Source of the DNA: Escherichia coli | Lineage (GTDB): Bacteria > Pseudomonadota > Gammaproteobacteria > Enterobacterales > Enterobacteriaceae | Length of the DNA: 64,000 nt | Direction: 5' to 3' (one strand) | Assembly (NCBI RefSeq): GCF_009931435.1 | Contig: NZ_CP043414.1 | Made by a program: the position numbers and the translations under genes | Notes under the pieces: generated by a model | What the model was told of the DNA's origin: nothing | The model's input: only the letters and a program-made list of their open reading frames with translations | Databases searched by the model: none | In this document: one piece after another, positions 6,083-31,110 of the stretch | How the letters are laid out: each line of letters starts with the position of its first letter | Numbering within the stretch: the first letter of the stretch is position 1

Positions 6083-6997
6083 ATGAGTCGCTCACAAAAT
6101 TTACGCCACAATGTGATTAACCAGGTCATTGATGATATGGCACGAGGTCATATCCCTTCGCCACTTCCATCGCAAAGTGCGCTGGCAGAAATGTACAACA
6201 TCAGCCGCACCACAGTGCGTCATATTCTCAGCCACTTACGCGAATGCGGCGTCTTGACGCAGGTTGGAAACGACTATGTTATTGCGCGTAAACCTGACCA
6301 TGATGACGGTTTCGCCTGTACTACCGCTTCAATGAGTGAACAAAACAAAGTGTTTGAGCAGGCTTTTTTTACGATGATAAACCAGCGCCAGTTACGCCCA
6401 GGAGAAACTTTTTCTGAACTGCAACTGGCTCGGGCCGCGGGTGTCAGCCCGGTTGTAGTAAGAGAATATCTTTTAAAATTCGGTCGTTATAATCTTATTC
6501 AGAGCGAAAAGCGCGGCCAGTGGAGCATGAAGCAATTCGATCAATCCTACGCCGAGCAGCTGTTTGAGCTACGCGAAATGCTCGAAACTCATTCACTTCA
6601 GCACTTTCTCAACCTGCCTGATCATGATCCCCGCTGGCTGCAGGCGAAAACCATGCTCGAACGTCATCGACTACTGCGTGACAACATCGGCAATAGCTTT
6701 CGCATGTTCTCGCAACTTGACAGAGATTTTCACTCCTTACTGCTTTCAGCTGCCGATAATATCTTTTTTGATCAATCGCTTGAGATCATCTCAGTCATCT
6801 TTCATTTTCACTATCAATGGGACGAAAGCGATCTTAAACAGCGCAATATCATTGCCGTCGATGAGCATATGACCATTCTCAGCGCTCTGATTTGCCGCAG
6901 TGACCTGGATGCCACCCTTGCGCTCCGTAACCATTTGAATTCAGCTAAACAATCAATGATTCGATCCATTAATGAGAACACGCGTTATGCTCATTAA
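6083..6997 (+). CDS. lgoR: GntR-family transcriptional regulator LgoR
   Basis: 304 aa; N-terminal winged-HTH region (SQSALAEMYNISRTTVRHIL); divergent from lgoD, upstream of lgoT. Confidence 0.8.
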   Translation: MSRSQNLRHNVINQVIDDMARGHIPSPLPSQSALAEMYNISRTTVRHILSHLRECGVLTQVGNDYVIARKPDHDDGFACTTASMSEQNKVFEQAFFTMINQRQLRPGETFSELQLARAAGVSPVVVREYLLKFGRYNLIQSEKRGQWSMKQFDQSYAEQLFELREMLETHSLQHFLNLPDHDPRWLQAKTMLERHRLLRDNIGNSFRMFSQLDRDFHSLLLSAADNIFFDQSLEIISVIFHFHYQWDESDLKQRNIIAVDEHMTILSALICRSDLDATLALRNHLNSAKQSMIRSINENTRYAH

Positions 6998-7211
6998 GTA
7001 CGGATTAAAAACAGCAAACTATTAGCGGGTGCACGGTTTTATCAAAAGATAAATACCGGAAAATTCCCGCTTACCTATGCTCACAATCAGTCGACTAAAA
7101 ATGTTTTTGTGAGCGGTAGTAAAGTCCTAAAACTTTCACCTGCCGTTAATGTCAACCTTGCGTAATGCACAATTACGTAAACAATTAAAATTATAAATAC
7201 AGGAGTCCGGC

Positions 7212-19813: not shown

Positions 19814-19827
19814 AATTTCACATTTTT

Positions 19828-19863
19828 CTTAAGCCGGAAGATATATATACCCCACCGGCTTAA
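19828..19863. terminator. Inverted repeat cttaagccgg / ccggcttaag between convergent yjiA and the 249-aa gene
   Basis: 10-bp perfect inverted repeat with 16-nt AT-rich spacer; candidate bidirectional terminator. Confidence 0.35.
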
Positions 19864-19878
19864 GAAAGTGCAATTCTC

Positions 19879-20628
19879 TTATGAAACATCACGAAATACA
19901 CAGGTAAGTTCTTTAGGACTTGCTTTCCATATATGGTCAAAGCCACTCGACAGCATGACTTCTATTTTTCCTTCCGGACTTTCAATTAGTAAATAGCGAT
20001 CATGGCAGTTTGTATATTTGGGATTTGTAGTGATTTGCACACTCCATTCAGGATGGATACAATGAACAAAATTACTATTTATTTTACTTCCGTTTTGGAC
20101 TGCAGCGACACCTACTGCGATTTCTGAAAATTCAATAACAAGCTCTTTTCTAGGTAGTACGGAATGAAATAAGCTGCATGTATTCTCCCAATTCTGTGCA
20201 AAGTAATTATCGCATATAATTACTTTTTTTGCATTGCAACATAGCATTTCCAGATACTTTTTTAAATATATTCTATTATCTGTAGGGCTTAATGTAACGG
20301 TAACTTGATTATTAACCATACCTTTTTTATAATGTACAAAGGGAAGTGATAAATTATCATTCTCAGTAAGGATTATTTTCAACAACGATTTAGATGCTAA
20401 AGTAACAAGATCATCATCACTTTCAGGCTGACTTGCTAACATAGATAAATATTGTCGATATTCTAACTCCGGCATCTTCAATCCTAAATTTCTTGCCTCA
20501 ATCCATTGCCTTTTGTTAGTTAAATAAGGTAGTACTAGTTTTTTATGTAATCTCTTCACCTTATTCTTATCATCCATATTTTCATATGCAACTAATAAAG
20601 ATGTATCAAGAACCATTTGATAAGACAT
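19879..20628 (-). CDS. Hypothetical 249-aa protein, third gene of the DUF262-ATPase operon (candidate effector)
   Basis: ATG at 20628 lies 4 nt after the ATPase stop with GAGG RBS inside the upstream gene; AT-rich; no motif I can assign. Confidence 0.6.
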   Translation of the reverse strand: MSYQMVLDTSLLVAYENMDDKNKVKRLHKKLVLPYLTNKRQWIEARNLGLKMPELEYRQYLSMLASQPESDDDLVTLASKSLLKIILTENDNLSLPFVHYKKGMVNNQVTVTLSPTDNRIYLKKYLEMLCCNAKKVIICDNYFAQNWENTCSLFHSVLPRKELVIEFSEIAVGVAAVQNGSKINSNFVHCIHPEWSVQITTNPKYTNCHDRYLLIESPEGKIEVMLSSGFDHIWKASPKELTCVFRDVS

Positions 20629-20632
20629 TTCT

Positions 20633-21682
20633 TTACCTCATCTTCATCAAATCATCTAAGGTTGCATCAAAAAAACCTAAAGGGAATCCCGTAACATTCT
20701 CTTGCAGATCGGTAAATTTCCCACCTTCATTAACTCTCATCGAGATAAAATCTTTATCCACATCAGGTTTATAATGTACAGAAATATCCTCAGAAGTTAT
20801 AACATCTTCATAAACCAAATACGCAAGTTTATTGATTAAATGTTCACAATGCGTTTCTACAATAATCTGGATACCCTTACTTGCTACAAATGCTAAAAAA
20901 ATTGCCAAATGAGACTGCGCTTTCGGATGCAATTGAATTTCGGGATTTTCTAGCAAAATAAGATCGCCTTTTTTTGCCATCAAACAAATAATCAAAACCT
21001 TTGCAATATAACTCATCCCAGCCCCAAGATTAAGAGGAGAAACATTTCCTTCAAGCTCTTTTAAGGTAAAAGCGACCTTAATCTGGTCACCAACTTTTTC
21101 AGTAACTAATTCAGACGTCGTTCCTGTAATCAGTTTCAACCAATAAGATAATTGATATGCAAGTGTTGTAGATTCGTGAACTTTCACCAGATATTCAGGT
21201 ACTGGCAAATGTTTCATTTTATCAAATGTTGAAAACAAGAATTCTCCTGCAACACCTACTCGACGTTCTGCGGTGGGCACAAATTCTTGTGCCCCCAAGC
21301 GGTTGGCATTCAGATAGAGCAACTCAGGTTCACTACCAGGCACTCTTGGCTCGTATTGATATCCCAGACGACTATCAATTTCGATATTTTCTGAGTTGAG
21401 CGTTAACGAATGAGAATTTTTTTCTGTATCCTGGACTGTTATAACAATAGATTTTGCGTTATTTTTTTTATTTCTAATAACAGGAAAATCAGCTAGAAAT
21501 CGGATAACTTCTTCCATACTATACTGATTAACAGAAGCGCTATTTTTAATTAGTAACATCAATGCCTGAATAACGCTGGATTTACCAGAAGAGTTAGTTC
21601 CAGTTAAAATGGTCAGTGGTGATAACACCAGACTTGTTGAGCCTAAACTTTTAAATCCTTGAATGTTAATATTTGTAAGCAT
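20633..21682 (-). CDS. P-loop ATPase (ABC/AAA_21-like), second gene of the DUF262-ATPase operon
   Basis: Walker A GTNSSGKSS near N-terminus; Walker B-like DLILLENPEIQLHP; start overlaps upstream gene by 17 nt. Confidence 0.75.
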   Translation of the reverse strand: MLTNINIQGFKSLGSTSLVLSPLTILTGTNSSGKSSVIQALMLLIKNSASVNQYSMEEVIRFLADFPVIRNKKNNAKSIVITVQDTEKNSHSLTLNSENIEIDSRLGYQYEPRVPGSEPELLYLNANRLGAQEFVPTAERRVGVAGEFLFSTFDKMKHLPVPEYLVKVHESTTLAYQLSYWLKLITGTTSELVTEKVGDQIKVAFTLKELEGNVSPLNLGAGMSYIAKVLIICLMAKKGDLILLENPEIQLHPKAQSHLAIFLAFVASKGIQIIVETHCEHLINKLAYLVYEDVITSEDISVHYKPDVDKDFISMRVNEGGKFTDLQENVTGFPLGFFDATLDDLMKMR

Positions 21683-22796
21683 TTTTAATCCTTTCCATTA
21701 TTTCCTTCGCAAAATCAAAACGCATATTTACATATTGTGTTGTATCAATTGCACCAGAAAAAATACCAATCTCATCAAAATTATACTTGTATTGTTCAAT
21801 AAGCTGTTTTAATTCAATATTTTTTGATAAAAATTCAAAACTTATCTGACTGAATACCATAACTAACACTTCGAATAATCCCATATTCACTGGTCGCCTT
21901 TTAGCACCTGATTTTGTTGAAAATCTAAATGCTTCTGAACCCAACGCTTTATAGACATTAGTCATACCAGTTATACAAGCATCTTCAACTTCTTCCAGTA
22001 ACTCATCATCAGCTTTTGTATTAATGAATTTCATCGCAGATGCTAAAAAAGCATCAATATCAGACCTAAATTCAACACCTGGCATTTGATTTGTTACAAG
22101 CAAATAAAATCCTACGAACCGCAAAACCAGATATCTGTCTCGCATACGCTCAGATTTTACGCCATTACCTGTTGCAAGCCTGAAAGACTCGTGTTCAGCG
22201 AGATCCTTAATTAACTTTGTGGCCTTGCCTTGATAAAGAGCATGCCGCATTTCCTGTTTATTTAGATTAATACCACTTCGATTTACACGCTCAAAAATAT
22301 TAAATTTCACATATTCAGGTGTTGGGGGTTGAATCACATAAGAATGTAACTGGCAATCTTCAAGCTTTGCTTGTAATAATGGAGGAATATCAGAAAATTT
22401 TTTTCCTCTCAAGTCAGGCAACATAGATAAATCAGTTAAAGAAAATTCATTGTTAACATAGCGTTTCAATGCAGATATTCGTTGTTTGCCATCAATGATT
22501 TGCCTGACACCATTTTCATCCTCAAAAAGATAAATTAATGGAATAGGAATCCCCATTAAAATAGATTCAATTAATTCTGACTGGTGTTTTCTATCCCAGA
22601 CAAGTTTACGCTGAAAATCTGGAGCAAGAACCAGTTGCCCACGAGCTTCGCGACGGAGTAATTCGAAAACACTGGATTGCTCTTTTGCAATTCGAACCTC
22701 AGTATCTGTCCCCATTTGATGCGGATGAGATGTTAACTCAAGCTCTTCTTGATCTTCGAGTTCAATGCTGTCGTTTTCTACATCCGCATTACTCAT
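21666..22796 (-). CDS. DUF262 (ParB/Srx-like) domain protein, first gene of the three-gene operon
   Basis: DUF262 motifs in order: PDFQRKLVW, IIDGKQR (DGQQR-type), NIFERVNRSGINLNKQE; acidic N-terminus; ATG at 22796. Confidence 0.8.
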   Translation of the reverse strand: MSNADVENDSIELEDQEELELTSHPHQMGTDTEVRIAKEQSSVFELLRREARGQLVLAPDFQRKLVWDRKHQSELIESILMGIPIPLIYLFEDENGVRQIIDGKQRISALKRYVNNEFSLTDLSMLPDLRGKKFSDIPPLLQAKLEDCQLHSYVIQPPTPEYVKFNIFERVNRSGINLNKQEMRHALYQGKATKLIKDLAEHESFRLATGNGVKSERMRDRYLVLRFVGFYLLVTNQMPGVEFRSDIDAFLASAMKFINTKADDELLEEVEDACITGMTNVYKALGSEAFRFSTKSGAKRRPVNMGLFEVLVMVFSQISFEFLSKNIELKQLIEQYKYNFDEIGIFSGAIDTTQYVNMRFDFAKEIMERIKNAYKY

Positions 22797-23036
22797 GGTA
22801 AAATTACCTTTAAAAATTTATCGAATTATTTATTCATAAAAATAGGGCGCTGAATCAAAATTTCAGCCCCTTAATCAACATGAATTATACCCTAACTTCC
22901 TTCTTGACTGCGACCTTCACTGCACCATTATGCGAGTTATCTCCAGAACATAATGCTCTCATACCGCCCTAAGTCATAGCCAGGCTATTGATTTTATGTA
23001 CAATCAGAATCGTCCTGATAAAAGCGAGAATACCCC

Positions 23037-25469
23037 ATGGCGGAACTGAACCTAAGTAACCTGACGGAAGCAGACATCATTACCAAATGCGTTATGCCAG
23101 CCATTCTCAATGCAGGCTGGGACAACACAACGCAAATCAGACAGGAGGTCAAACTCCGGGACGGTAAAGTCATCGTACGTGGTAAAGTTGCGGCACGCAG
23201 AACGGTAAAATCTGCTGACATCGTGCTGTATCACAAACCAGGCATTCCCTTAGCCGTGATTGAAGCAAAAGCCAACAAACATGAAATTGGCAAAGGGATG
23301 CAACAGGGCATTGAATATGCGCGCCTGCTGGACGTTCCTTTTGTTTTTGCCACCAACGGGGATGGCTTTATCTTCCGCGATGCCACCGCAGCCGAAGGTG
23401 AATGCCTTGAAAAGCAAATAACGCTGGATGACTTCCCCTCCCCCGCTGAACTCTGGCAAAAATTCTGCCTCTGGAAAGGATACACACAAGCTCAGCTTCC
23501 GGTGATTACTCAGGACTATTACGACGATGGCAGCGGTAAATCGCCACGTTATTACCAGCTTCAGGCAATCAACAAAACCATTGAAGCCGTCTCCAACGGG
23601 CAAAACCGCGTTCTGTTGGTCATGGCGACCGGAACAGGGAAAACCTATACCGCATTCCAGATCATCTGGCGCCTGTGGAAATCAAAAAATAAAAAACGCA
23701 TTCTGTTCCTTGCCGATCGCAACATTCTGGTCGACCAAACCAAAAATAATGATTTCCAGCCATTTGGTACGGCAATGACCAAAGTCAGCGGACGCACCAT
23801 TGATCCCGCTTATGAAATTCACCTCGCGCTCTATCAGGCTATAACTGGCCCGGAGGAAGACCAAAAAGCGTTTAAACAAGTCGCACCAGATTTCTTCGAT
23901 CTGATAGTCATCGACGAATGCCATCGCGGCAGCGCATCCGAAGACAGCGCCTGGCGAGAGATCCTTGATTATTTCAGTTCCGCCACCCAAATTGGCTTAA
24001 CCGCCACGCCAAAAGAGACGCATGAAGTCTCCAGCACGGATTACTTCGGCGATCCGGTTTACGTCTACTCGCTAAAAGAAGGGATCGAAGACGGCTTCCT
24101 CGCCCCTTATAAAGTTGTCCGTGTTGATATTGATGTTGATCTGCAAGGCTGGCGCCCAACCAAAGGGCAAACTGACTTAAACGGCGAAGTGATCGACGAT
24201 CGTATCTATAACCAGAAAGATTTCGATCGCACGATGGTAATCGACGAACGCACAGAACTGGTTGCCAGAACCATTACCGACTACCTCAAGCGCACCAATC
24301 CGATGGATAAAACCATCGTCTTCTGTAACGACATCGATCATGCAGAACGTATGCGCCGCGCCCTGGTTAATCTCAACTCGGAGCAGGTGAAAAAGAACGA
24401 CAAATACGTCATGAAAATCACCGGCGATGATGAAATTGGCAAAGCTCAGTTGGATAACTTCATCAACCCGAAAAAACCGTACCCGGTTATCGCGACCACT
24501 TCAGAGCTGATGACCACCGGTGTGGATGCTAAAACCTGCAAACTGGTAGTACTGGACCAGAACATCCAGTCGATGACCAAATTCAAGCAGATTATCGGTC
24601 GTGGTACACGCATCGACGAACGTTACGGCAAACTCTGGTTTACCATCCTCGACTTTAAAAAAGCCACCGAACTGTTTGCCGATGAGCGTTTCGATGGCAT
24701 TCCCGAAAAAGTCATGGATACCACACCAGAGGATATCACCGATCCAGAATCTGATTTTGAAGAGAAACTCGAAGAAATCAGCGAACATGACGACGAACAG
24801 GTAACGGGCGTTGATGAACCGCCTGCGCCACCATACCAGGTTACCGATACCGATGATGTCGGCCCACTTCCGGAAGAAGACGAGAAGAAAATCCGCAAGT
24901 TTCACGTCAACGGTGTCGCGGTGGGCGTTATTGCGCAGCGTGTTCAGTATTACGATGCCGACGGTAAACTGGTTACCGAATCTTTTAAAGATTACACCCG
25001 CAAAACACTGCTCAAAGAATATGCCTCGCTGGATGACTTTACCCGCAAGTGGCAGGACGCCGATCGCAAAGAAGCGATCATTCACGAGCTGGAGCAACAG
25101 GGGATCATCTGGGAAGTACTGGCAGAAGAAGTCGGTAAAGATCTCGACCCGTTCGACATGCTTTGCCACGTAGTGTATGGTCAGCCGCCGTTAACCCGCA
25201 AAGAGCGCGCCGAGAACGTGCGCAAGCGGAACTACTTCACAAAATACTCTGAAGCAGCGCAAGCCGTGCTCGATAATCTGCTGGATAAATACGCCGATGC
25301 GGGCGTACAGGAGATCGAAAGTATTCAGGTGCTGAAACTTAAACCATTCGACAGCATGGGCACTTTACCGGAGATTATTAAAACCGGATTTGGCGACCGT
25401 AACGGGTATAATCAGGCGCTCAGCGAGCTGGAAAACGAAATCTACCAATTACCGCCCCGCTCTGCTTAA
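23037..25469 (+). CDS. hsdR: Type I restriction enzyme R subunit (HsdR), non-K-12 family (likely IB-like)
   Basis: 810 aa; N-terminal HsdR nuclease region; helicase motif [11 protein letters not shown] and motif [10 protein letters not shown]; hsdR-hsdM-hsdS order. Confidence 0.9.
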
Positions 25470-25499
25470 CAACTCTCTTTTGCGCCTTCTGCAACCATC

Positions 25500-27005
25500 A
25501 TGTTGCAGAAGGCCTTGTTTTTCATGGAATACAACATGTCTATCAGCTCAGTAATCAAATCATTACAAGATATTATGCGCAAAGATGCCGGTGTGGATGG
25601 CGATGCGCAGCGTCTCGGTCAGCTCTCCTGGCTGCTGTTTTTGAAAATCTTCGATGCCCAGGAAGAGGCGCTGGAACTGGAGCAGGATAACTATCAATAT
25701 CCGATCCCACAGCGTTATTTGTGGCGCAGTTGGGCCGCCAACGCGCAGGGCATTACCGGTGATTCCCTGCTGGAATTCGTTAATGATGATCTGTTCCCGG
25801 CGTTGAAAAACCTCACTGCGCCTATCGATAAAAACCCACGCGGCTACGTGGTGAAGCAGGCGTTCAGCGATGCCTATAACTATATGAAAAACGGTACGCT
25901 ACTGCGTCAGGTGATCAACAAGCTGAACGAAATTGACTTTACCAGCGCCAGCGAACGCCATCTGTTTGGTGATATTTACGAACAGATCCTTAAAGATCTG
26001 CAATCTGCGGGCAATGCTGGCGAATTCTATACTCCACGCGCCGTCACTCGCTTTATGGTGGATCGCGTTGATCCGAAACTCGGCGAATCCATTATGGACC
26101 CGGCCTGCGGTACGGGCGGTTTTCTTGCCTGCGCATTTGATCATGTAAAGAACAAATACGTGAAGAGCGTCGCCGATCATCAGACTCTGCAACAACAGAT
26201 CCACGGTGTCGAGAAAAAACAGCTTCCGCACCTGCTGGCGACCACCAATATGCTGCTGCACGGCATTGAAGTACCGGTACAAATTCGTCACGACAACACC
26301 CTGAATAAACCGCTTTCCTCCTGGGATGAGCAACTGGATGTGATTGTTACCAACCCGCCATTTGGTGGCACGGAAGAAGACGGTATTGAGAAGAACTTTC
26401 CGGCAGAGATGCAAACCCGCGAAACGGCGGATCTGTTCCTGCAACTGATTGTGGAAGTACTGGCGAAAAACGGTCGCGCGGCGGTGGTATTGCCGGATGG
26501 CACACTATTTGGCGAAGGCGTTAAAACCAAAATCAAAAAACTGCTTACCGAAGAGTGCAACCTGCATACCATCGTGCGTTTACCGAATGGGGTGTTTAAC
26601 CCCTATACCGGCATTAAAACCAACCTGTTGTTCTTTACCAAAGGTCAGCCAACCAAAGAGATTTGGTTCTATGAGCATCCGTATCCGGCGGGCGTGAAAA
26701 ATTACAGTAAAACCAAGCCGATGAAGTTTGAAGAGTTTCAGGCGGAGATCGACTGGTGGGGGAACGAGGCCGATGGTTTTGCCAGCCGCGTCGAGAATGA
26801 GCAGGCGTGGAAAGTCAGCATTGATGACGTGATTGCGCGTAACTTCAATCTGGATATTAAAAACCCACATCAGGCGGAAACCGTTAGCCATGATCCGGAC
26901 GAGCTGTTAGCGCAGTATGCAAAGCAGCAGGCGGAGATCCAGACGCTGCGTAATCAACTGCGCGATATTCTTGGCGCTGCGCTGTCTGGCAAGGAGGTTA
27001 ACTGA
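25500..27005 (+). CDS. hsdM: Type I restriction-modification N6-adenine methyltransferase subunit (HsdM)
   Basis: AdoMet motif DPACGTGGFL and catalytic NPPFGG; alternative starts at 25524 or 25536; stop overlaps hsdS start by 1 nt. Confidence 0.9.
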   Translation: MLQKALFFMEYNMSISSVIKSLQDIMRKDAGVDGDAQRLGQLSWLLFLKIFDAQEEALELEQDNYQYPIPQRYLWRSWAANAQGITGDSLLEFVNDDLFPALKNLTAPIDKNPRGYVVKQAFSDAYNYMKNGTLLRQVINKLNEIDFTSASERHLFGDIYEQILKDLQSAGNAGEFYTPRAVTRFMVDRVDPKLGESIMDPACGTGGFLACAFDHVKNKYVKSVADHQTLQQQIHGVEKKQLPHLLATTNMLLHGIEVPVQIRHDNTLNKPLSSWDEQLDVIVTNPPFGGTEEDGIEKNFPAEMQTRETADLFLQLIVEVLAKNGRAAVVLPDGTLFGEGVKTKIKKLLTEECNLHTIVRLPNGVFNPYTGIKTNLLFFTKGQPTKEIWFYEHPYPAGVKNYSKTKPMKFEEFQAEIDWWGNEADGFASRVENEQAWKVSIDDVIARNFNLDIKNPHQAETVSHDPDELLAQYAKQQAEIQTLRNQLRDILGAALSGKEVN

Positions 27006-28753
27006 TGAGTGTGGAAAAGCTGATCGTTGATCATATGGAAACCTGGACCTCGGCGTTGCAAACCCGTTCCACCGCCGGGCGCGGCAGTTCCGGAAAAATT
27101 GATTTATATGGCATTAAGAAATTACGTGAGCTGATTCTGGAACTGGCTGTGCGCGGTAAACTGGTGCCGCAGGATCCGAATGATGAACCGGCGTCGGAGC
27201 TGCTGAAGCGTAATGAAGAACGGAAAAAAGAATTAGCGCGCAATAATGGTATGAAAACCACAGCAAGCACTAATATCCATGGAAATGAATATTATATCGA
27301 TACCCCCGAAAAGTGGTCATGGATAAGACTTGGTAATTTAGCTAAATTCATCGATTACCGAGGGAAAACACCACATAAAAAAGAAAATGGTATAAGGCTT
27401 ATAACAGCAAAAAATATCAGAAAGGGCTGTATTGATCTCAATCCAGAAGAATTCATATCTGAAGAAGATTACATATCATGGATGACAAGAGGCTTTCCTA
27501 AATGTGGTGATATTTTATTCACAACTGAAGCACCACTGGGGAATGCAGCGATTATTGATTTAGACGGAAAGTTCGCTCTTGCTCAACGTTCTATCTGTTT
27601 TCAATGGCATACTCCAGAGATAAGCCCTTTTATGCTTATTCAAATCCTGGCGATCCCCTTCCAGTCACAACTAAGTGACAAATCTACAGGCATGACCGCA
27701 ACAGGAATAAAAGCGTCTAAGTTAAAAGAGATCCCTGTTATTTTACCACCTTACCAAGAACAAATACGTATTGTATCCAAAGTACAGGAGTTCATGTCCC
27801 TATGTGACCAACTGGAACAGCAATCCCTGACCACTCTGGACGCACATCAGCAACTGGTTGAAACCCTGTTGGGAACGCTTACAGACAGCCAAAACGCCGA
27901 GGAACTGGCTGAAAACTGGGCGCGTATTAGCGAGCATTTCGACACCCTATTTACCACCGAAGCCAGCGTGGATGCGTTAAAACAGACCATTCTGCAACTG
28001 GCCGTAATGGGCAAACTTGTGCCGCATGATCCGAATGACGAACCAGCCTCTGAACTGCTCAAACGAATTGCGCAGGAAAAAGCTCAACTGGTGAAAGAAG
28101 GAAAAATAAAAAAACAAAAACCGTTGCCGCCGATTAGCGATGAGGAAAAACCTTTTGAACTGCCGGAAGGGTGGGAATGGATTAGACTAGGAAATATTGG
28201 TGAAGTTAAAGGGGGCGGAACCCCAAGTAAAAACAATCCTGATTTTTGGAAAGGTAATATTCCATGGGTTTCACCAAAGGATATGAAGGTTAATTACATC
28301 TCCAAAAGTCAACTAAATATTTCAAAAGAGGCTGTATTGGAGAGTTCAGTACATCTAATTCCTGAAAATAGTCTTATTTTTGTTGTCCGAGGCATGATTT
28401 TAGCCCATACATTCCCCGTAGCAATAACAAAAAAAGAAGTCACTATTAATCAAGATATGAAAGCCATATCAACTAATCAATTAAATACTGATTTTTTAAT
28501 TTACTTACTTAAAGCAAACGAGACTCGAGTAATATGCTTAGTTGACCGCTCCTCTCATGGCACATGTAAACTTGTTTCAGATAAACTTTTCAATTTGGTT
28601 TTACCGTTGCCTCCATTAGAAGAACAATTTCGTATTACAGAACGAATAAATATGCTATTAGCTTATTGTGATAGATTGAAAAATTATATAAATCTAAAAA
28701 AACAAACCCAACTGCACCTTGCAGATGCACTCACTGACGCGGCGATAAACTAA
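27005..28753 (+). CDS. hsdS: Type I restriction-modification specificity subunit (HsdS) with two target-recognition domains
   Basis: 582 aa; duplicated conserved segment LAVRGKLVPQDPNDEPASELLKR / LAVMGKLVPHDPNDEPASELLKR flanking AT-rich variable TRDs. Confidence 0.88.
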   Translation: MSVEKLIVDHMETWTSALQTRSTAGRGSSGKIDLYGIKKLRELILELAVRGKLVPQDPNDEPASELLKRNEERKKELARNNGMKTTASTNIHGNEYYIDTPEKWSWIRLGNLAKFIDYRGKTPHKKENGIRLITAKNIRKGCIDLNPEEFISEEDYISWMTRGFPKCGDILFTTEAPLGNAAIIDLDGKFALAQRSICFQWHTPEISPFMLIQILAIPFQSQLSDKSTGMTATGIKASKLKEIPVILPPYQEQIRIVSKVQEFMSLCDQLEQQSLTTLDAHQQLVETLLGTLTDSQNAEELAENWARISEHFDTLFTTEASVDALKQTILQLAVMGKLVPHDPNDEPASELLKRIAQEKAQLVKEGKIKKQKPLPPISDEEKPFELPEGWEWIRLGNIGEVKGGGTPSKNNPDFWKGNIPWVSPKDMKVNYISKSQLNISKEAVLESSVHLIPENSLIFVVRGMILAHTFPVAITKKEVTINQDMKAISTNQLNTDFLIYLLKANETRVICLVDRSSHGTCKLVSDKLFNLVLPLPPLEEQFRITERINMLLAYCDRLKNYINLKKQTQLHLADALTDAAIN

Positions 28754-28899: not shown

Positions 28900-28980
28900 T
28901 TTAGCGCGGTGCGAATGTGCGCCAACACACCCGCACCGCTCATCACAATCCCTATTTCACGAGAATAGTAATCATGACTG
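28900..28980 (-). ncRNA. symR: Putative SymR antisense sRNA (antitoxin of SymE), approximate coordinates
   Basis: Inferred from established symE/SymR arrangement (cis-antisense RNA over the symE 5' UTR and start codon); ends not determinable by eye. Confidence 0.3.
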
Positions 28981-29315
28981 ACACGCATTCTATTGCACAA
29001 CCGTTCGAAGCAGAAGTCTCCCCGGCAAATAACCGTCAATTAACCGTGAGTTATGCGAGCCGCTACCCGGATTACAGCCGTATTCCCGCCATCACTCTGA
29101 AAGGTCAGTGGCTGGAAACCGCCGGTTTTACCACCGGCACGGCGGTAGATGTCAAAGTGATGGAAGGCTGTATTGTCCTCACCGCCCAACCACCCGCCGC
29201 CGAGGAGAGCGAACTGATGCAGTCACTGCGCCAGGTGTGCAAACTGTCAGCGCGTAAACAGAAGCAGGTGCAGGAGTTTATTGGGGTGATTGCCGGTAAA
29301 CAGAAAGTCGCCTGA
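28974..29315 (+). CDS. symE: SOS-induced type I toxin SymE
   Basis: Translation from ATG 28974 ([34 protein letters not shown]..., 113 aa) matches SymE; ORF-track start 28917 rejected. Confidence 0.9.
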
Positions 29316-29361: not shown

Positions 29362-31110
29362 TTATACCAACGCGCTCTCCATCTGTTTTTCAAATGCCTG
29401 ACGGATTAATCCCATAATGTAAGGAAGTTGTGCGAGGTCGCTGAAACCAATTTCTACATCGCCATTGCCCCAGCGCCCAACATTTGTCACATCTTTGGCA
29501 ATACCTTTCGGATCGACCAGTTCATGAAACTGCATATTAAGCGACAATCGCAGTCGGCTTTTTTGCGGCACAACATCAACAAAATTCGTTTCCGCTTTAA
29601 ACGCAATATAGAGCTTCAATACTTCCTGCGTGATCCCTGCGTCCAGGCGCAAAACTTCATCGCTAAGATGATCGAATAACACCCGGCTATGCGAACCATC
29701 AGCAAGAAAAGGATAATCACTCAGGCTGTAACTGGTTTTGTTTTCCGGCTGCCCCCGATAAACAGCTAAAACCTCTTCAGGAAGAGAAGGCGCTTGCCAG
29801 ACCTGAACCGCGAGATCGGCCAGACGATCGGCTCGGGCGTGAATGGCAGCTTCATCCCATTTTTCGCACTGTCCAAGACCGATATTCAAATAAAGCGGGC
29901 TATGCTTAAAGCCGTCTTCAATATCGCGTTTTTCCGCGAAAGGTCTGTCACTGTAGCGGGAGTTATAGCGCGTTAAAGTGAGATTCCCCAACGTATGCAA
30001 CAATTCTTTATGAATACGCTGCCAGTCGCTTCCCAGCTCTTCGCGCCATTTAGCCGACAAATTTTCGTTCTGCGGCATAATGTGCTCAATCGTAAACTCT
30101 TCCACGCGCTCTCTGCGTTTATTGTTTTCCAGTCGTCGTAACCAGTAACTGCGACTGCGGAAGTTATAGAGATCGCGAACTTTTAATTCCCGTTTAAATT
30201 CATCATCGTTGGGGAAACGACGATATGAAGGTAGATTCAGAAAATGTACCTGAATACTTTCCAGATAATTTTCTTTATTAATAACTTTATAAAAAGTGGC
30301 AAACGTCTTGTTAAGAGAATTTGTTGGAATCGCACATACTGCACGGCGGAAAACATAAGATTCAATTAAACGAATTATGCTCAGGAAATCTTCACGAGAC
30401 AAAACGCCATTTTTATAGTCATGATAAAGCGCCAGTAAGAAAGGATACGCCACATCGACTTTTAACTCGCGCAAATCCTGAAAAGCCGTAGCAAGCGATT
30501 TGTCACTTTCTTTTCCCAATGCCATTGCACAGTAATACTCCGCGTAGATGTGAATATCTTCAACCAGCCGATCTACGCCTTTTTCAGCAACACTCTGGCT
30601 ACGGGCATGGAGTTTAAAAGCCTCATAGACTTCATCTGTCCGAGGGATCTCCCCCGTTTTTACCGTCAGATAATGACGCATAAAACTGTCAAAATATTCG
30701 CTGTAACCTTGCTGACCAAAGGCGACTTCCATGGGTCGCCAGTGATCTTCATACAACCGGGTTTGATGCTCTGGTTCGAGACCCATCAGAATAAAATTGC
30801 GCACCAGATCGGCCTGACTTAACGCCTTACCGGTGGAGTTCATACTTTCAAAAATCAGTTGCGGATTATCCTGACCACGATTAAGCGCCACATCGACAAT
30901 TAATAACTTTGCTAACCCACGACATAAGGGGATCAAGTCATCACCGAGTTTGGCAATTTGTTCATCAAAGAAAGTAAAGTTTTCCATTATTCGATGGGAA
31001 TAGTTTTCTGGCATTGGTCTTTGTTTTATTAACGCCAGCAAACTGTCTTTATCAGTCTCGGTAAGCAGTAATTTAAATCCTTTCTCGCCGGACTCATAAG
31101 GATTGAGCAA
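29362..31110 (-). CDS. GmrSD-family-like protein (DUF262 C-terminal portion plus DUF1524/HNH), probably 5'-truncated; candidate type IV restriction remnant
   Basis: C-terminal region has EHIMPQNENLSAKWREELG (DUF1524 His-Me type); N-terminal region has only the distal DUF262 motif (IFESMNSTGKALSQADLVRNF); first in-frame codon is TTG with a stop 8 codons upstream. Confidence 0.6.
   Translation of the reverse strand: MLNPYESGEKGFKLLLTETDKDSLLALIKQRPMPENYSHRIMENFTFFDEQIAKLGDDLIPLCRGLAKLLIVDVALNRGQDNPQLIFESMNSTGKALSQADLVRNFILMGLEPEHQTRLYEDHWRPMEVAFGQQGYSEYFDSFMRHYLTVKTGEIPRTDEVYEAFKLHARSQSVAEKGVDRLVEDIHIYAEYYCAMALGKESDKSLATAFQDLRELKVDVAYPFLLALYHDYKNGVLSREDFLSIIRLIESYVFRRAVCAIPTNSLNKTFATFYKVINKENYLESIQVHFLNLPSYRRFPNDDEFKRELKVRDLYNFRSRSYWLRRLENNKRRERVEEFTIEHIMPQNENLSAKWREELGSDWQRIHKELLHTLGNLTLTRYNSRYSDRPFAEKRDIEDGFKHSPLYLNIGLGQCEKWDEAAIHARADRLADLAVQVWQAPSLPEEVLAVYRGQPENKTSYSLSDYPFLADGSHSRVLFDHLSDEVLRLDAGITQEVLKLYIAFKAETNFVDVVPQKSRLRLSLNMQFHELVDPKGIAKDVTNVGRWGNGDVEIGFSDLAQLPYIMGLIRQAFEKQMESALV

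Follow-up and report, generated by a model that had tools for sequence, protein, structure and literature searches.

Does the short intergenic region that separates a leftward defence operon from the rightward hsdR gene in this Escherichia coli genome serve as one control region for both systems, or does it join two units that each carry their own expression signals? The window, i.e. the whole stretch of DNA analysed here, is 64 kb in length (64,000 nucleotides), and the ORF list together with the sequence places the gap at exactly 22797-23036, a length of 240 bp, between a minus-strand operon of three genes (19879-20628, 20633-21682 and 21666-22796) and the plus-strand gene hsdR (23037-25469), which is followed by hsdM and hsdS. 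The operon is closely packed, with its first two genes (nsnA and nsnB) overlapping by 17 nt and the second and third (nsnB and nsnC) separated by 4 nt. A preliminary description of the gap as an AT-rich divergent region agrees with these limits and with its G+C content of 37.1%, as against 48.9% for the whole 64-kb window; the leftward operon itself stands at 34.7%, so that the gap is not more AT-rich than the operon it adjoins. Inside the gap the G+C content steps from 34.3% (22797-22962) to 43.2% (22963-23036). The same description held that this single region must contain the promoters of both the operon and hsdRMS, and that co-regulation of the two systems, including restriction alleviation, could be exerted here. 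We regard it as probable instead that the gap is the junction of two self-contained transcription units, which cassette exchange in the Immigration Control Region brought into a back-to-back position.

The leftward operon, originally noted as a candidate defence operon, is a known system, namely the Menshen (NsnABC) anti-phage system: all three genes match the PADLOC models NsnA, NsnB and NsnC near the full profile length and in the canonical gene order. The first gene, nsnA (21666-22796, minus strand), codes for a DUF262/ParB-like protein of 376 aa (PADLOC NsnA 2e-110, profile positions 21-383 of 385; Pfam GmrSD_N 8.5e-25), whose start codon and N-terminus are kept in relatives. It is followed on the same strand by nsnB (20633-21682), which codes for an ABC/AAA_15-AAA_21 ATPase of 349 aa (PADLOC NsnB 1.5e-78, full length; Pfam AAA_15 and AAA_21), and by nsnC (19879-20628), whose product of 249 aa matches the PADLOC NsnC profile over positions 1-241 of 242 (2.2e-71) and has no match in Pfam. 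On these matches the operon is predicted to protect against phages. An association of Menshen neighbourhoods with type I restriction-modification (R-M) systems, BREX and methylases has already been published, with 27.9% of Menshen operons neighbouring such systems and part of these being type I R-M (PMC12065111); the present operon, with its canonical NsnA/B/C order and its position next to a type I R-M system, conforms to this account. Between the convergent yjiA and nsnC genes lies an inverted repeat with a 13-bp stem (TTTCTTAAGCCGG ... CCGGCTTAAGAAA; 19823-19865), and other Menshen cassettes have a different hairpin at the same place after nsnC.

The rightward genes are those of an EcoAI-family (type IB) R-M system, as judged from their sequence matches. 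HsdR (gene at 23037-25469, plus strand) scores 1193.8 bits against the NCBIfam equivalog restrict_EcoAI (cut-off 550), contains the Pfam domains ResIII and EcoEI_R_C, and is 99.6% identical to a RefSeq-annotated HsdR of the EcoAI/FtnUII family. It is adjoined by hsdM (25536-27005, plus strand; 489 aa; N6_Mtase and HsdM_N) and by hsdS (27005-28753, plus strand; 582 aa; PADLOC Specificity_I 9.6e-219), in which Pfam Methylase_S is matched in two stretches, with two target-recognition domains.

Both systems sit in a familiar setting. To the left of the operon are a cstA/btsT-like gene, yjiX and yjiA, and to the right of the hsd genes are symE/symR, a GmrSD-like gene, a MocR-like gene in the yjiR position and an Rpn-family gene, an order that matches the annotated loci L001, L013 and L035. 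The locus is the enterobacterial Immigration Control Region, with variable defence cargo beside yjiA, in the slot that mrr occupies in E. coli K-12. This region has been described as a defence island with replaceable cargo (PMC2481252; PMC12707154), and the present locus shares with the mrr-hsdR arrangement of K-12 the slot beside yjiA, the replaceable content and an hsdR gene that points away from a divergent defence gene (PMC2481252; PMC12707154). Unlike in K-12, the left cargo is a three-gene Menshen operon rather than mrr or a GmrSD-like gene, and the hsd genes are of type IB rather than IA. Some features of the right arm of the island were noted in passing. At 28903-29315, immediately downstream of hsdS and in keeping with other E. 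coli loci, the beginning of symE (NCBIfam SymE 9.9e-69) is overlapped by the symR antisense RNA (Rfam 88.9 bits). The GmrSD-like gene (29362-31110, minus strand) has a C-terminal DUF5655 and a TTG start; the PADLOC Orf5/HEC-06 models align with it only from profile position ~104, so its DUF262 N-terminus looks shortened, and the ORF is longer than the 1164-nt GmrSD-domain gene at the corresponding place after symE in the reference loci. The Rpn-family gene (33169-34125, minus strand), which resembles recombination-promoting nucleases/transposases, lies at the island's far edge, a position that it also has in E. coli C.

The strongest evidence on the nature of the gap comes from its inheritance. 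In a comparison with 5426 complete RefSeq E. coli genomes (megablast and blastn), 970 matched the hsdR side, i.e. were type IB carriers, and none matched nsnA or the left 166 bp of the gap. The match begins at 22963 in 563 of these 970 genomes and, in most of the remaining ~400, at about 23026, which is 11-14 bp before the hsdR start codon. The 22963-type loci that were inspected (a urinary isolate, O157:H7 and E. coli C) have as left neighbour one DUF262 gene of the GmrSD-like kind, which is split in O157:H7 and intact in the other two; in E. coli C hsdR itself is only a truncated remnant. In the one locus of the second type that was inspected the left neighbours are an antitoxin gene and a hypothetical gene. 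Alignment with the GmrSD-context and antitoxin-context loci shows a sharp break of homology at 22962/22963, and the 74-bp block to its right (22963-23036, plus strand), which holds the predicted promoter, 5' UTR and ribosome-binding site, is 96-99% identical upstream of hsdR in the 563 Menshen-free genomes. As this block occurs with hsdR beside unrelated left-hand cargo, the alignments assign these 74 bp to hsdR and not to Menshen.

The left part of the gap shows the complementary behavior. Relatives at 79-81% identity are found in varied loci with no nearby hsd genes, namely in Serratia (where nsnABC lies between LysR and LacI), an Enterobacter lambdoid prophage, a P2-like prophage, Yersinia and Dickeya, and viral contigs too hold Menshen cassettes that lack an hsd neighbour. 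The upstream sequence travels with these cassettes: the Serratia and Dickeya loci are homologous from 22917 as far as the nsnA start codon, at 74-77% identity, which delimits a core module of promoter and leader (22797-22917, minus strand), and the Enterobacter-prophage and viral-contig copies have the same conserved upstream blocks. Hence the gap is not inherited as one unit: 563 genomes have its right 74 bp but no Menshen, and its left ~120 bp are found in at least five contexts that lack hsd. The modular structure is directly seen in these comparisons, and the idea of a single shared control region fares poorly against it. Between the two core modules lies linker DNA (22918-22975, minus strand), which is common to Salmonella and the metagenome contig L020, both of which adjoin hsdR, and to Yersinia and Dickeya, with the Yersinia homology established by an alignment that reaches 22975 and that of Dickeya by the multiple alignment. 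Downstream of nsnC a 3' fragment of yjiA is present in Yersinia (L018, 7918-8130) and a shorter one in Dickeya (L031, about 6918-7000), and the upstream homology in Yersinia stops two bases short of the predicted hsdR -35 element. Because the yjiA fragment is kept and the upstream homology ends before that element, the Yersinia and Dickeya copies look like cassettes taken out of an Immigration Control Region locus, with hsdR and its promoter left behind.

The distribution of the cassette shows some further peculiarities. The exact NsnA protein is present in 575 blocks of a public assembly collection, and the eight places that were read have the same context and a nearly identical gap; the cassette (19879-22962) is absent from all 5426 complete RefSeq E. 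coli genomes despite these 575 blocks. One complete GenBank chromosome (L011) carries it with a frameshifted nsnB. The ~80% identical prophage cassettes (L016/L017, L023, L024 and L029/L030) occupy cargo positions: in the lambdoid prophage Menshen lies between the replication genes (O/P) and the DinI/RusA/antiterminator genes, and in the P2-like prophage it is flanked by gpA, the replication gene, and by the portal gene. The plasmid collection yielded only ~67% identical Menshen operons, in which homology ends inside nsnA and which are uninformative for the gap.

The particular pairing of Menshen with hsdR is by no means recent. Salmonella loci have the same arrangement (hsdSMR, nsnABC, yjiA, yjiX, cstA), with a gap of 242 bp that is 78% identical to that of the window over its full length, and in contig L020 hsdR stands head to head with nsnA across an alignable gap. 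As the same arrangement and an alignable gap recur in both, the Menshen-hsdR junction is, on the sequence comparisons, old and inherited. The Salmonella proteins are 74% (NsnA), 86% (NsnB), 80% (NsnC), 90% (HsdR) and 97% (HsdM) identical to those of the window. Some functional linkage of the pair is possible in view of a junction that has been kept in E. coli, Salmonella (with NsnA at 74% and HsdR at 90%) and the metagenome contig.

What expression signals might each module contain? Scans alone are of limited use for this purpose. Consensus promoter-like sites number 20 over 10 kb against 20.0 expected, with no enrichment over shuffles, and the consensus scan finds no minus-strand match in the gap. 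With a weight matrix, the gap has two plus-strand sites with scores of 9 or more, against an expectation of 0.27 for 240 bp of one strand, and the best minus-strand sites score 7.7-7.9. As the consensus sites are not enriched and the minus-strand weight-matrix scores are weak, we base our promoter calls on conservation and not on scores. Conserved footprints of the -10/-35 type occur on both strands, and they suggest that the gap very probably holds a promoter of the leftward operon and a promoter of hsdR.

On the hsdR side the candidate promoter (22977-23004, plus strand) comprises a -35 element TAGCCA (22977-22982), a 16-nt spacer and a -10 element TACAAT (22999-23004), with a weight-matrix score of 9.1 and a match in the consensus scan. 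In an alignment of four E. coli contexts (including E. coli C and O157), Salmonella and contig L020, the segment TCATAGCCAG, which contains TAGCCA, is invariant; it is followed by five columns of which four vary, and then by a second invariant segment, TGATTTTATGTACAATC, which contains TACAAT. The 5' UTR and a GAGAA ribosome-binding site 3' of the -10 element are likewise conserved. This footprint in 22963-23036 is the pattern expected of a promoter and agrees with the consensus scans. We infer that the block is hsdR's own weak sigma-70-type promoter, from which transcription would start near 23011 and yield a 5' UTR of ~25 nt. Literature searches found no mapped EcoAI promoter with which it could be compared. 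The invariant -10 region also contains a palindrome, TGTACA (within 22986-23007), which in Salmonella and L020 has CTGAT...ATCAG arms; it could be a protein-binding site or merely promoter sequence. The best-scoring site of the gap was also considered as the hsdR promoter. This second plus-strand site, TTGACT-16-CATTAT (22904-22931, score 9.8), lies in the Menshen module, and as its TTGACT is kept neither in Salmonella nor in other Menshen modules, we rejected it as probably fortuitous.

On the Menshen side the upstream regions of relatives show a common order: a box AAGGTCGCAGT, 11 variable bases, the conserved segment TTAGGGTATAAT, ~13 variable bases, a hairpin, usually a T-run, the motif GATAAAT.ATAC, a ribosome-binding site and the nsnA start codon. 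Within TTAGGGTATAAT lies the predicted -10 element TATAAT (22884-22889, minus strand), which has a weight-matrix score of 7.7 with a poor -35 and is called on its conservation. The 14-nt block AGTTAGGGTATAAT has a mean column identity of 0.94 across nine lineages, as against 0.65-0.68 for the spacer and flanks, and the -10 hexamer is TATAAT or its only variant TACAAT in all nine. From this element transcription would start near 22877. The box AAGGTCGCAGT (22907-22917, minus strand), after which the next 11 nt vary, is kept in the nine lineages at the position of a -35 element and is unlike TTGACA: the candidate hexamers CGCAGT, TCGCAG and GTCGCA match TTGACA at no more than three of six positions, and the weight-matrix -35 score is -1.1. 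Thus, by the usual features of sigma-70 promoters, there is a conserved -10 but no TTGACA-like -35 16-18 nt upstream of it, although that position is conserved nonetheless. The consensus scans missed this promoter because the box is unlike TTGACA. It is conceivable that the promoter needs a further factor or that the conserved box serves another purpose.

Several other readings of these conserved elements were examined. The 10-nt core of the box, AGGTCGCAGT, has a single exact copy in the 64-kb window, and one-mismatch matches to it occur at the chance level, which speaks against a repeated site for a host factor. A small leader ORF (...NDSH...KVAV...RV) that ends in the TAA of the TATAAT looked conserved on visual inspection, yet just four of 10 sequences have it intact with a start codon, and its stop codon is lost in the TACAAT variants; as TACAAT keeps the critical positions of a -10 element and destroys the TAA, we read the conserved hexamer as a -10 and not as a stop codon. 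An Rfam search of the gap (E up to 1) returned only a chance-level match, of 19.9 bits against a gathering score of 97. A scan of the collection with the pattern GTCGCRGT-N11-TTARGGTATAAT added only two Menshen loci, both of the prophage type; three further metagenome matches lie in coding DNA and were set aside as chance. The published account of Menshen does not contain the word "promoter" (PMC12065111), and in this respect the box, the -10 element and the leader hairpin of the enterobacterial lineage are described here only.

The hairpin of the nsnA leader (22844-22871, minus strand) has a predicted stability of -13.9 kcal/mol (z -3.0) and was also recovered in the inverted-repeat scan (as I4) and in the terminator-like scan. 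It is followed by a U-rich run, UAUUUUUAU (22835-22843, minus strand), which according to the terminator scan and folding gives the whole the form of an intrinsic terminator. Given the start near 22877, the hairpin would begin ~6 nt into the transcript, and hairpin and U-run would fall within its first ~45 nt, ahead of the nsnA start codon and the weak ribosome-binding site that precedes it. All 10 of the aligned leaders are able to form the hairpin. Compensatory changes are seen at three of its pairs, the share of cells that pair is 92.6% as against 12-49% in slid controls, and the covariation score was reached by none of 500 shuffles; with a small sample of related sequences this covariation is supportive rather than conclusive of a conserved structure. 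In the window, as in Salmonella, Serratia, Yersinia and Dickeya, the U-run comes straight after a G+C-containing stem-loop; the prophage/viral variants L016, L023 and L024 have lost the U-run, and the P2-like copy L029 has no hairpin. The structure may act as a leaky terminator, stabilise the 5' end or shield the operon from leftward read-through, and most likely it would limit or stabilise expression of the operon and stop leftward transcription that enters from upstream. Termination cannot be its only conserved role, because there are prophage variants without the U-run and a P2-like copy without the hairpin. In its stable stem a few nucleotides after the predicted start, followed by a U-run, it resembles the 5'-proximal stem-loops and leader terminators of bacterial mRNAs. 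It differs in that some variants lack the U-run and in that no alternative structure for anti-termination came to light; the role assigned to it here is a predicted one. In E. coli a second allele of the gap (L006, L009) has four substitutions and one deletion, all in or around the hairpin (window 22845-22875), and is identical in the rest of the gap.

The lack of resemblance between the conserved AAGGTCGCAGT box and TTGACA raises the alternative that the box, the hairpin palindrome or both are operators on the DNA, bound by a protein such as an autorepressing NsnA, rather than a surrogate -35 and an RNA element. In its favour, a published account presents NsnA as a DNA-binding protein of the ParB-like kind (PMC12065111), the Yersinia and Dickeya hairpins are palindromic almost throughout, and the prophage variants can dispense with the U-run. 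However, the stem and loop change with compensation, from GCTGAA/TTCAGC with a 7-nt loop in the window to GCTCTG/CAGAGC with a 4-nt loop in Yersinia and Dickeya, which fits a structure in RNA or DNA and not a sequence-specific operator, and the P2-like variant does without the hairpin entirely. We consequently give the operator reading little credence.

The orientation of hairpin and U-run, which would stop leftward transcription, also bears on the possibility that the two units are physically coupled with no shared regulator, either by divergent supercoiling or through a leftward promoter within the hsdR block (TTATCA-19-TAAAAT, 23021 to 22991) that feeds Menshen and is attenuated at the hairpin. 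The units stand back to back and the pair has long been kept together, divergent promoters ~130 bp apart can interact via supercoiling, and TTATCA-19-TAAAAT, with a score of 7.9, is the best minus-strand site and lies in sequence conserved across three lineages. Against this, its 19-nt spacer is poor, the presence of the hsdR promoter and 5' UTR on the opposite strand accounts equally well for its conservation, and Menshen cassettes keep their own -10 and box where the hsdR block is absent. A coupling of this kind seems unlikely to us.

The proposal that one regulator or an overlapping pair of promoters co-regulates Menshen and hsdRMS, restriction alleviation included, draws on the divergence of the genes from one common 240-bp gap, on the junction kept in E. 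coli, Salmonella and contig L020, and on the frequency with which Menshen adjoins R-M systems (PMC12065111). Comparable layouts exist among type II R-M systems (CfrBI, Ecl18kI/SsoII and the C-protein systems), where divergent defence genes likewise flank a short gap. In those systems the promoters overlap and are mutually exclusive, or are served by one operator (PMC12707154), whereas here the promoters lie apart, the halves are separable and there is no regulator gene. The predicted -10 elements (22884-22889, minus strand, and 22999-23004, plus strand) are ~110 bp apart and do not overlap. Inverted-repeat and weight-matrix scans of the gap found no palindrome, repeat or operator common to both modules, nothing in the sequence ties both promoters to one regulator, and no regulator gene lies in or beside the gap. 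Together with the occurrence of each half without the other and a terminator-like hairpin after hsdR, these observations make shared control very improbable.

That last hairpin (25484-25513, plus strand), with a 12-bp stem and a T-run, was found by the terminator scan just after the hsdR stop codon and is retained in Salmonella, where each arm has its outer 9 bp unchanged and the inner part of the stem, though altered, can still base-pair. The start of hsdM given in the ORF list, 25500, falls in its loop and is probably an artefact, with 25536 as the conserved start: the PADLOC match begins at residue 13 of the longer ORF, and identical DNA elsewhere is annotated as coding for 489 aa. In EcoKI there are two weak promoters, one before hsdR, which is followed by a terminator, and a second one for hsdMS (PMC12707154). 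The present locus resembles EcoKI in the order hsdR-hsdM-hsdS, in a weak-looking promoter before hsdR and in the terminator-like hairpin after it; it differs in belonging to family IB, in its unrelated upstream sequence and in having only a candidate for the second promoter. Transcription from the hsdR promoter would meet this conserved hairpin, and by analogy with EcoKI hsdM and hsdS probably have a promoter of their own or are reached by read-through. A perfect TATAAT in the 3' end of hsdR (25407-25412), which like that of the Menshen promoter follows a GGG, is a possible -10 element for hsdMS; no good -35 was seen for it. Of the initial expectation that the gap must hold promoters in both directions, the two footprints uphold the part that concerns the operon and hsdR, and the part in which one promoter there serves all of hsdRMS is too strong in the light of the conserved hairpin with its T-run and of the two-promoter precedent of EcoKI (PMC12707154). 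Nor is there support for restriction alleviation being exerted in the gap. In types IA and IB alleviation, like establishment in a new host, proceeds post-translationally by ClpXP degradation of HsdR (PMC3874165; PMC12707154), which also counts against shared control of this type IB system, and the restriction activity encoded here would be expected to come under the same ClpXP control.

Both defence systems and the island that houses them were already known, and the conserved promoter-leader module of Menshen is a small new detail. A more speculative, and in our view doubtful, extension would be that the AAGGTCGCAGT box and the covarying hairpin form a portable switch of the Menshen lineage, acting by NsnA autoregulation or by an attenuation that infection relieves, and that the pairing with hsdR could reflect a real coupling of expression. 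On the reading that we prefer, of two units joined by cassette exchange, co-regulation does not follow simply from two defence systems being neighbours in a hotspot, as each here carries its own promoter piece, and the breakpoint of the exchange can be placed, with a precision of a few bases, 74 bp ahead of hsdR. A promoter-leader unit of ~120 bp accompanies the enterobacterial Menshen cassettes as they move among the Immigration Control Region, prophages of the lambdoid and P2-like types and other islands; this unit is a defined minimal native fragment for their expression, and the conserved box at its -35 position poses a small regulatory puzzle.
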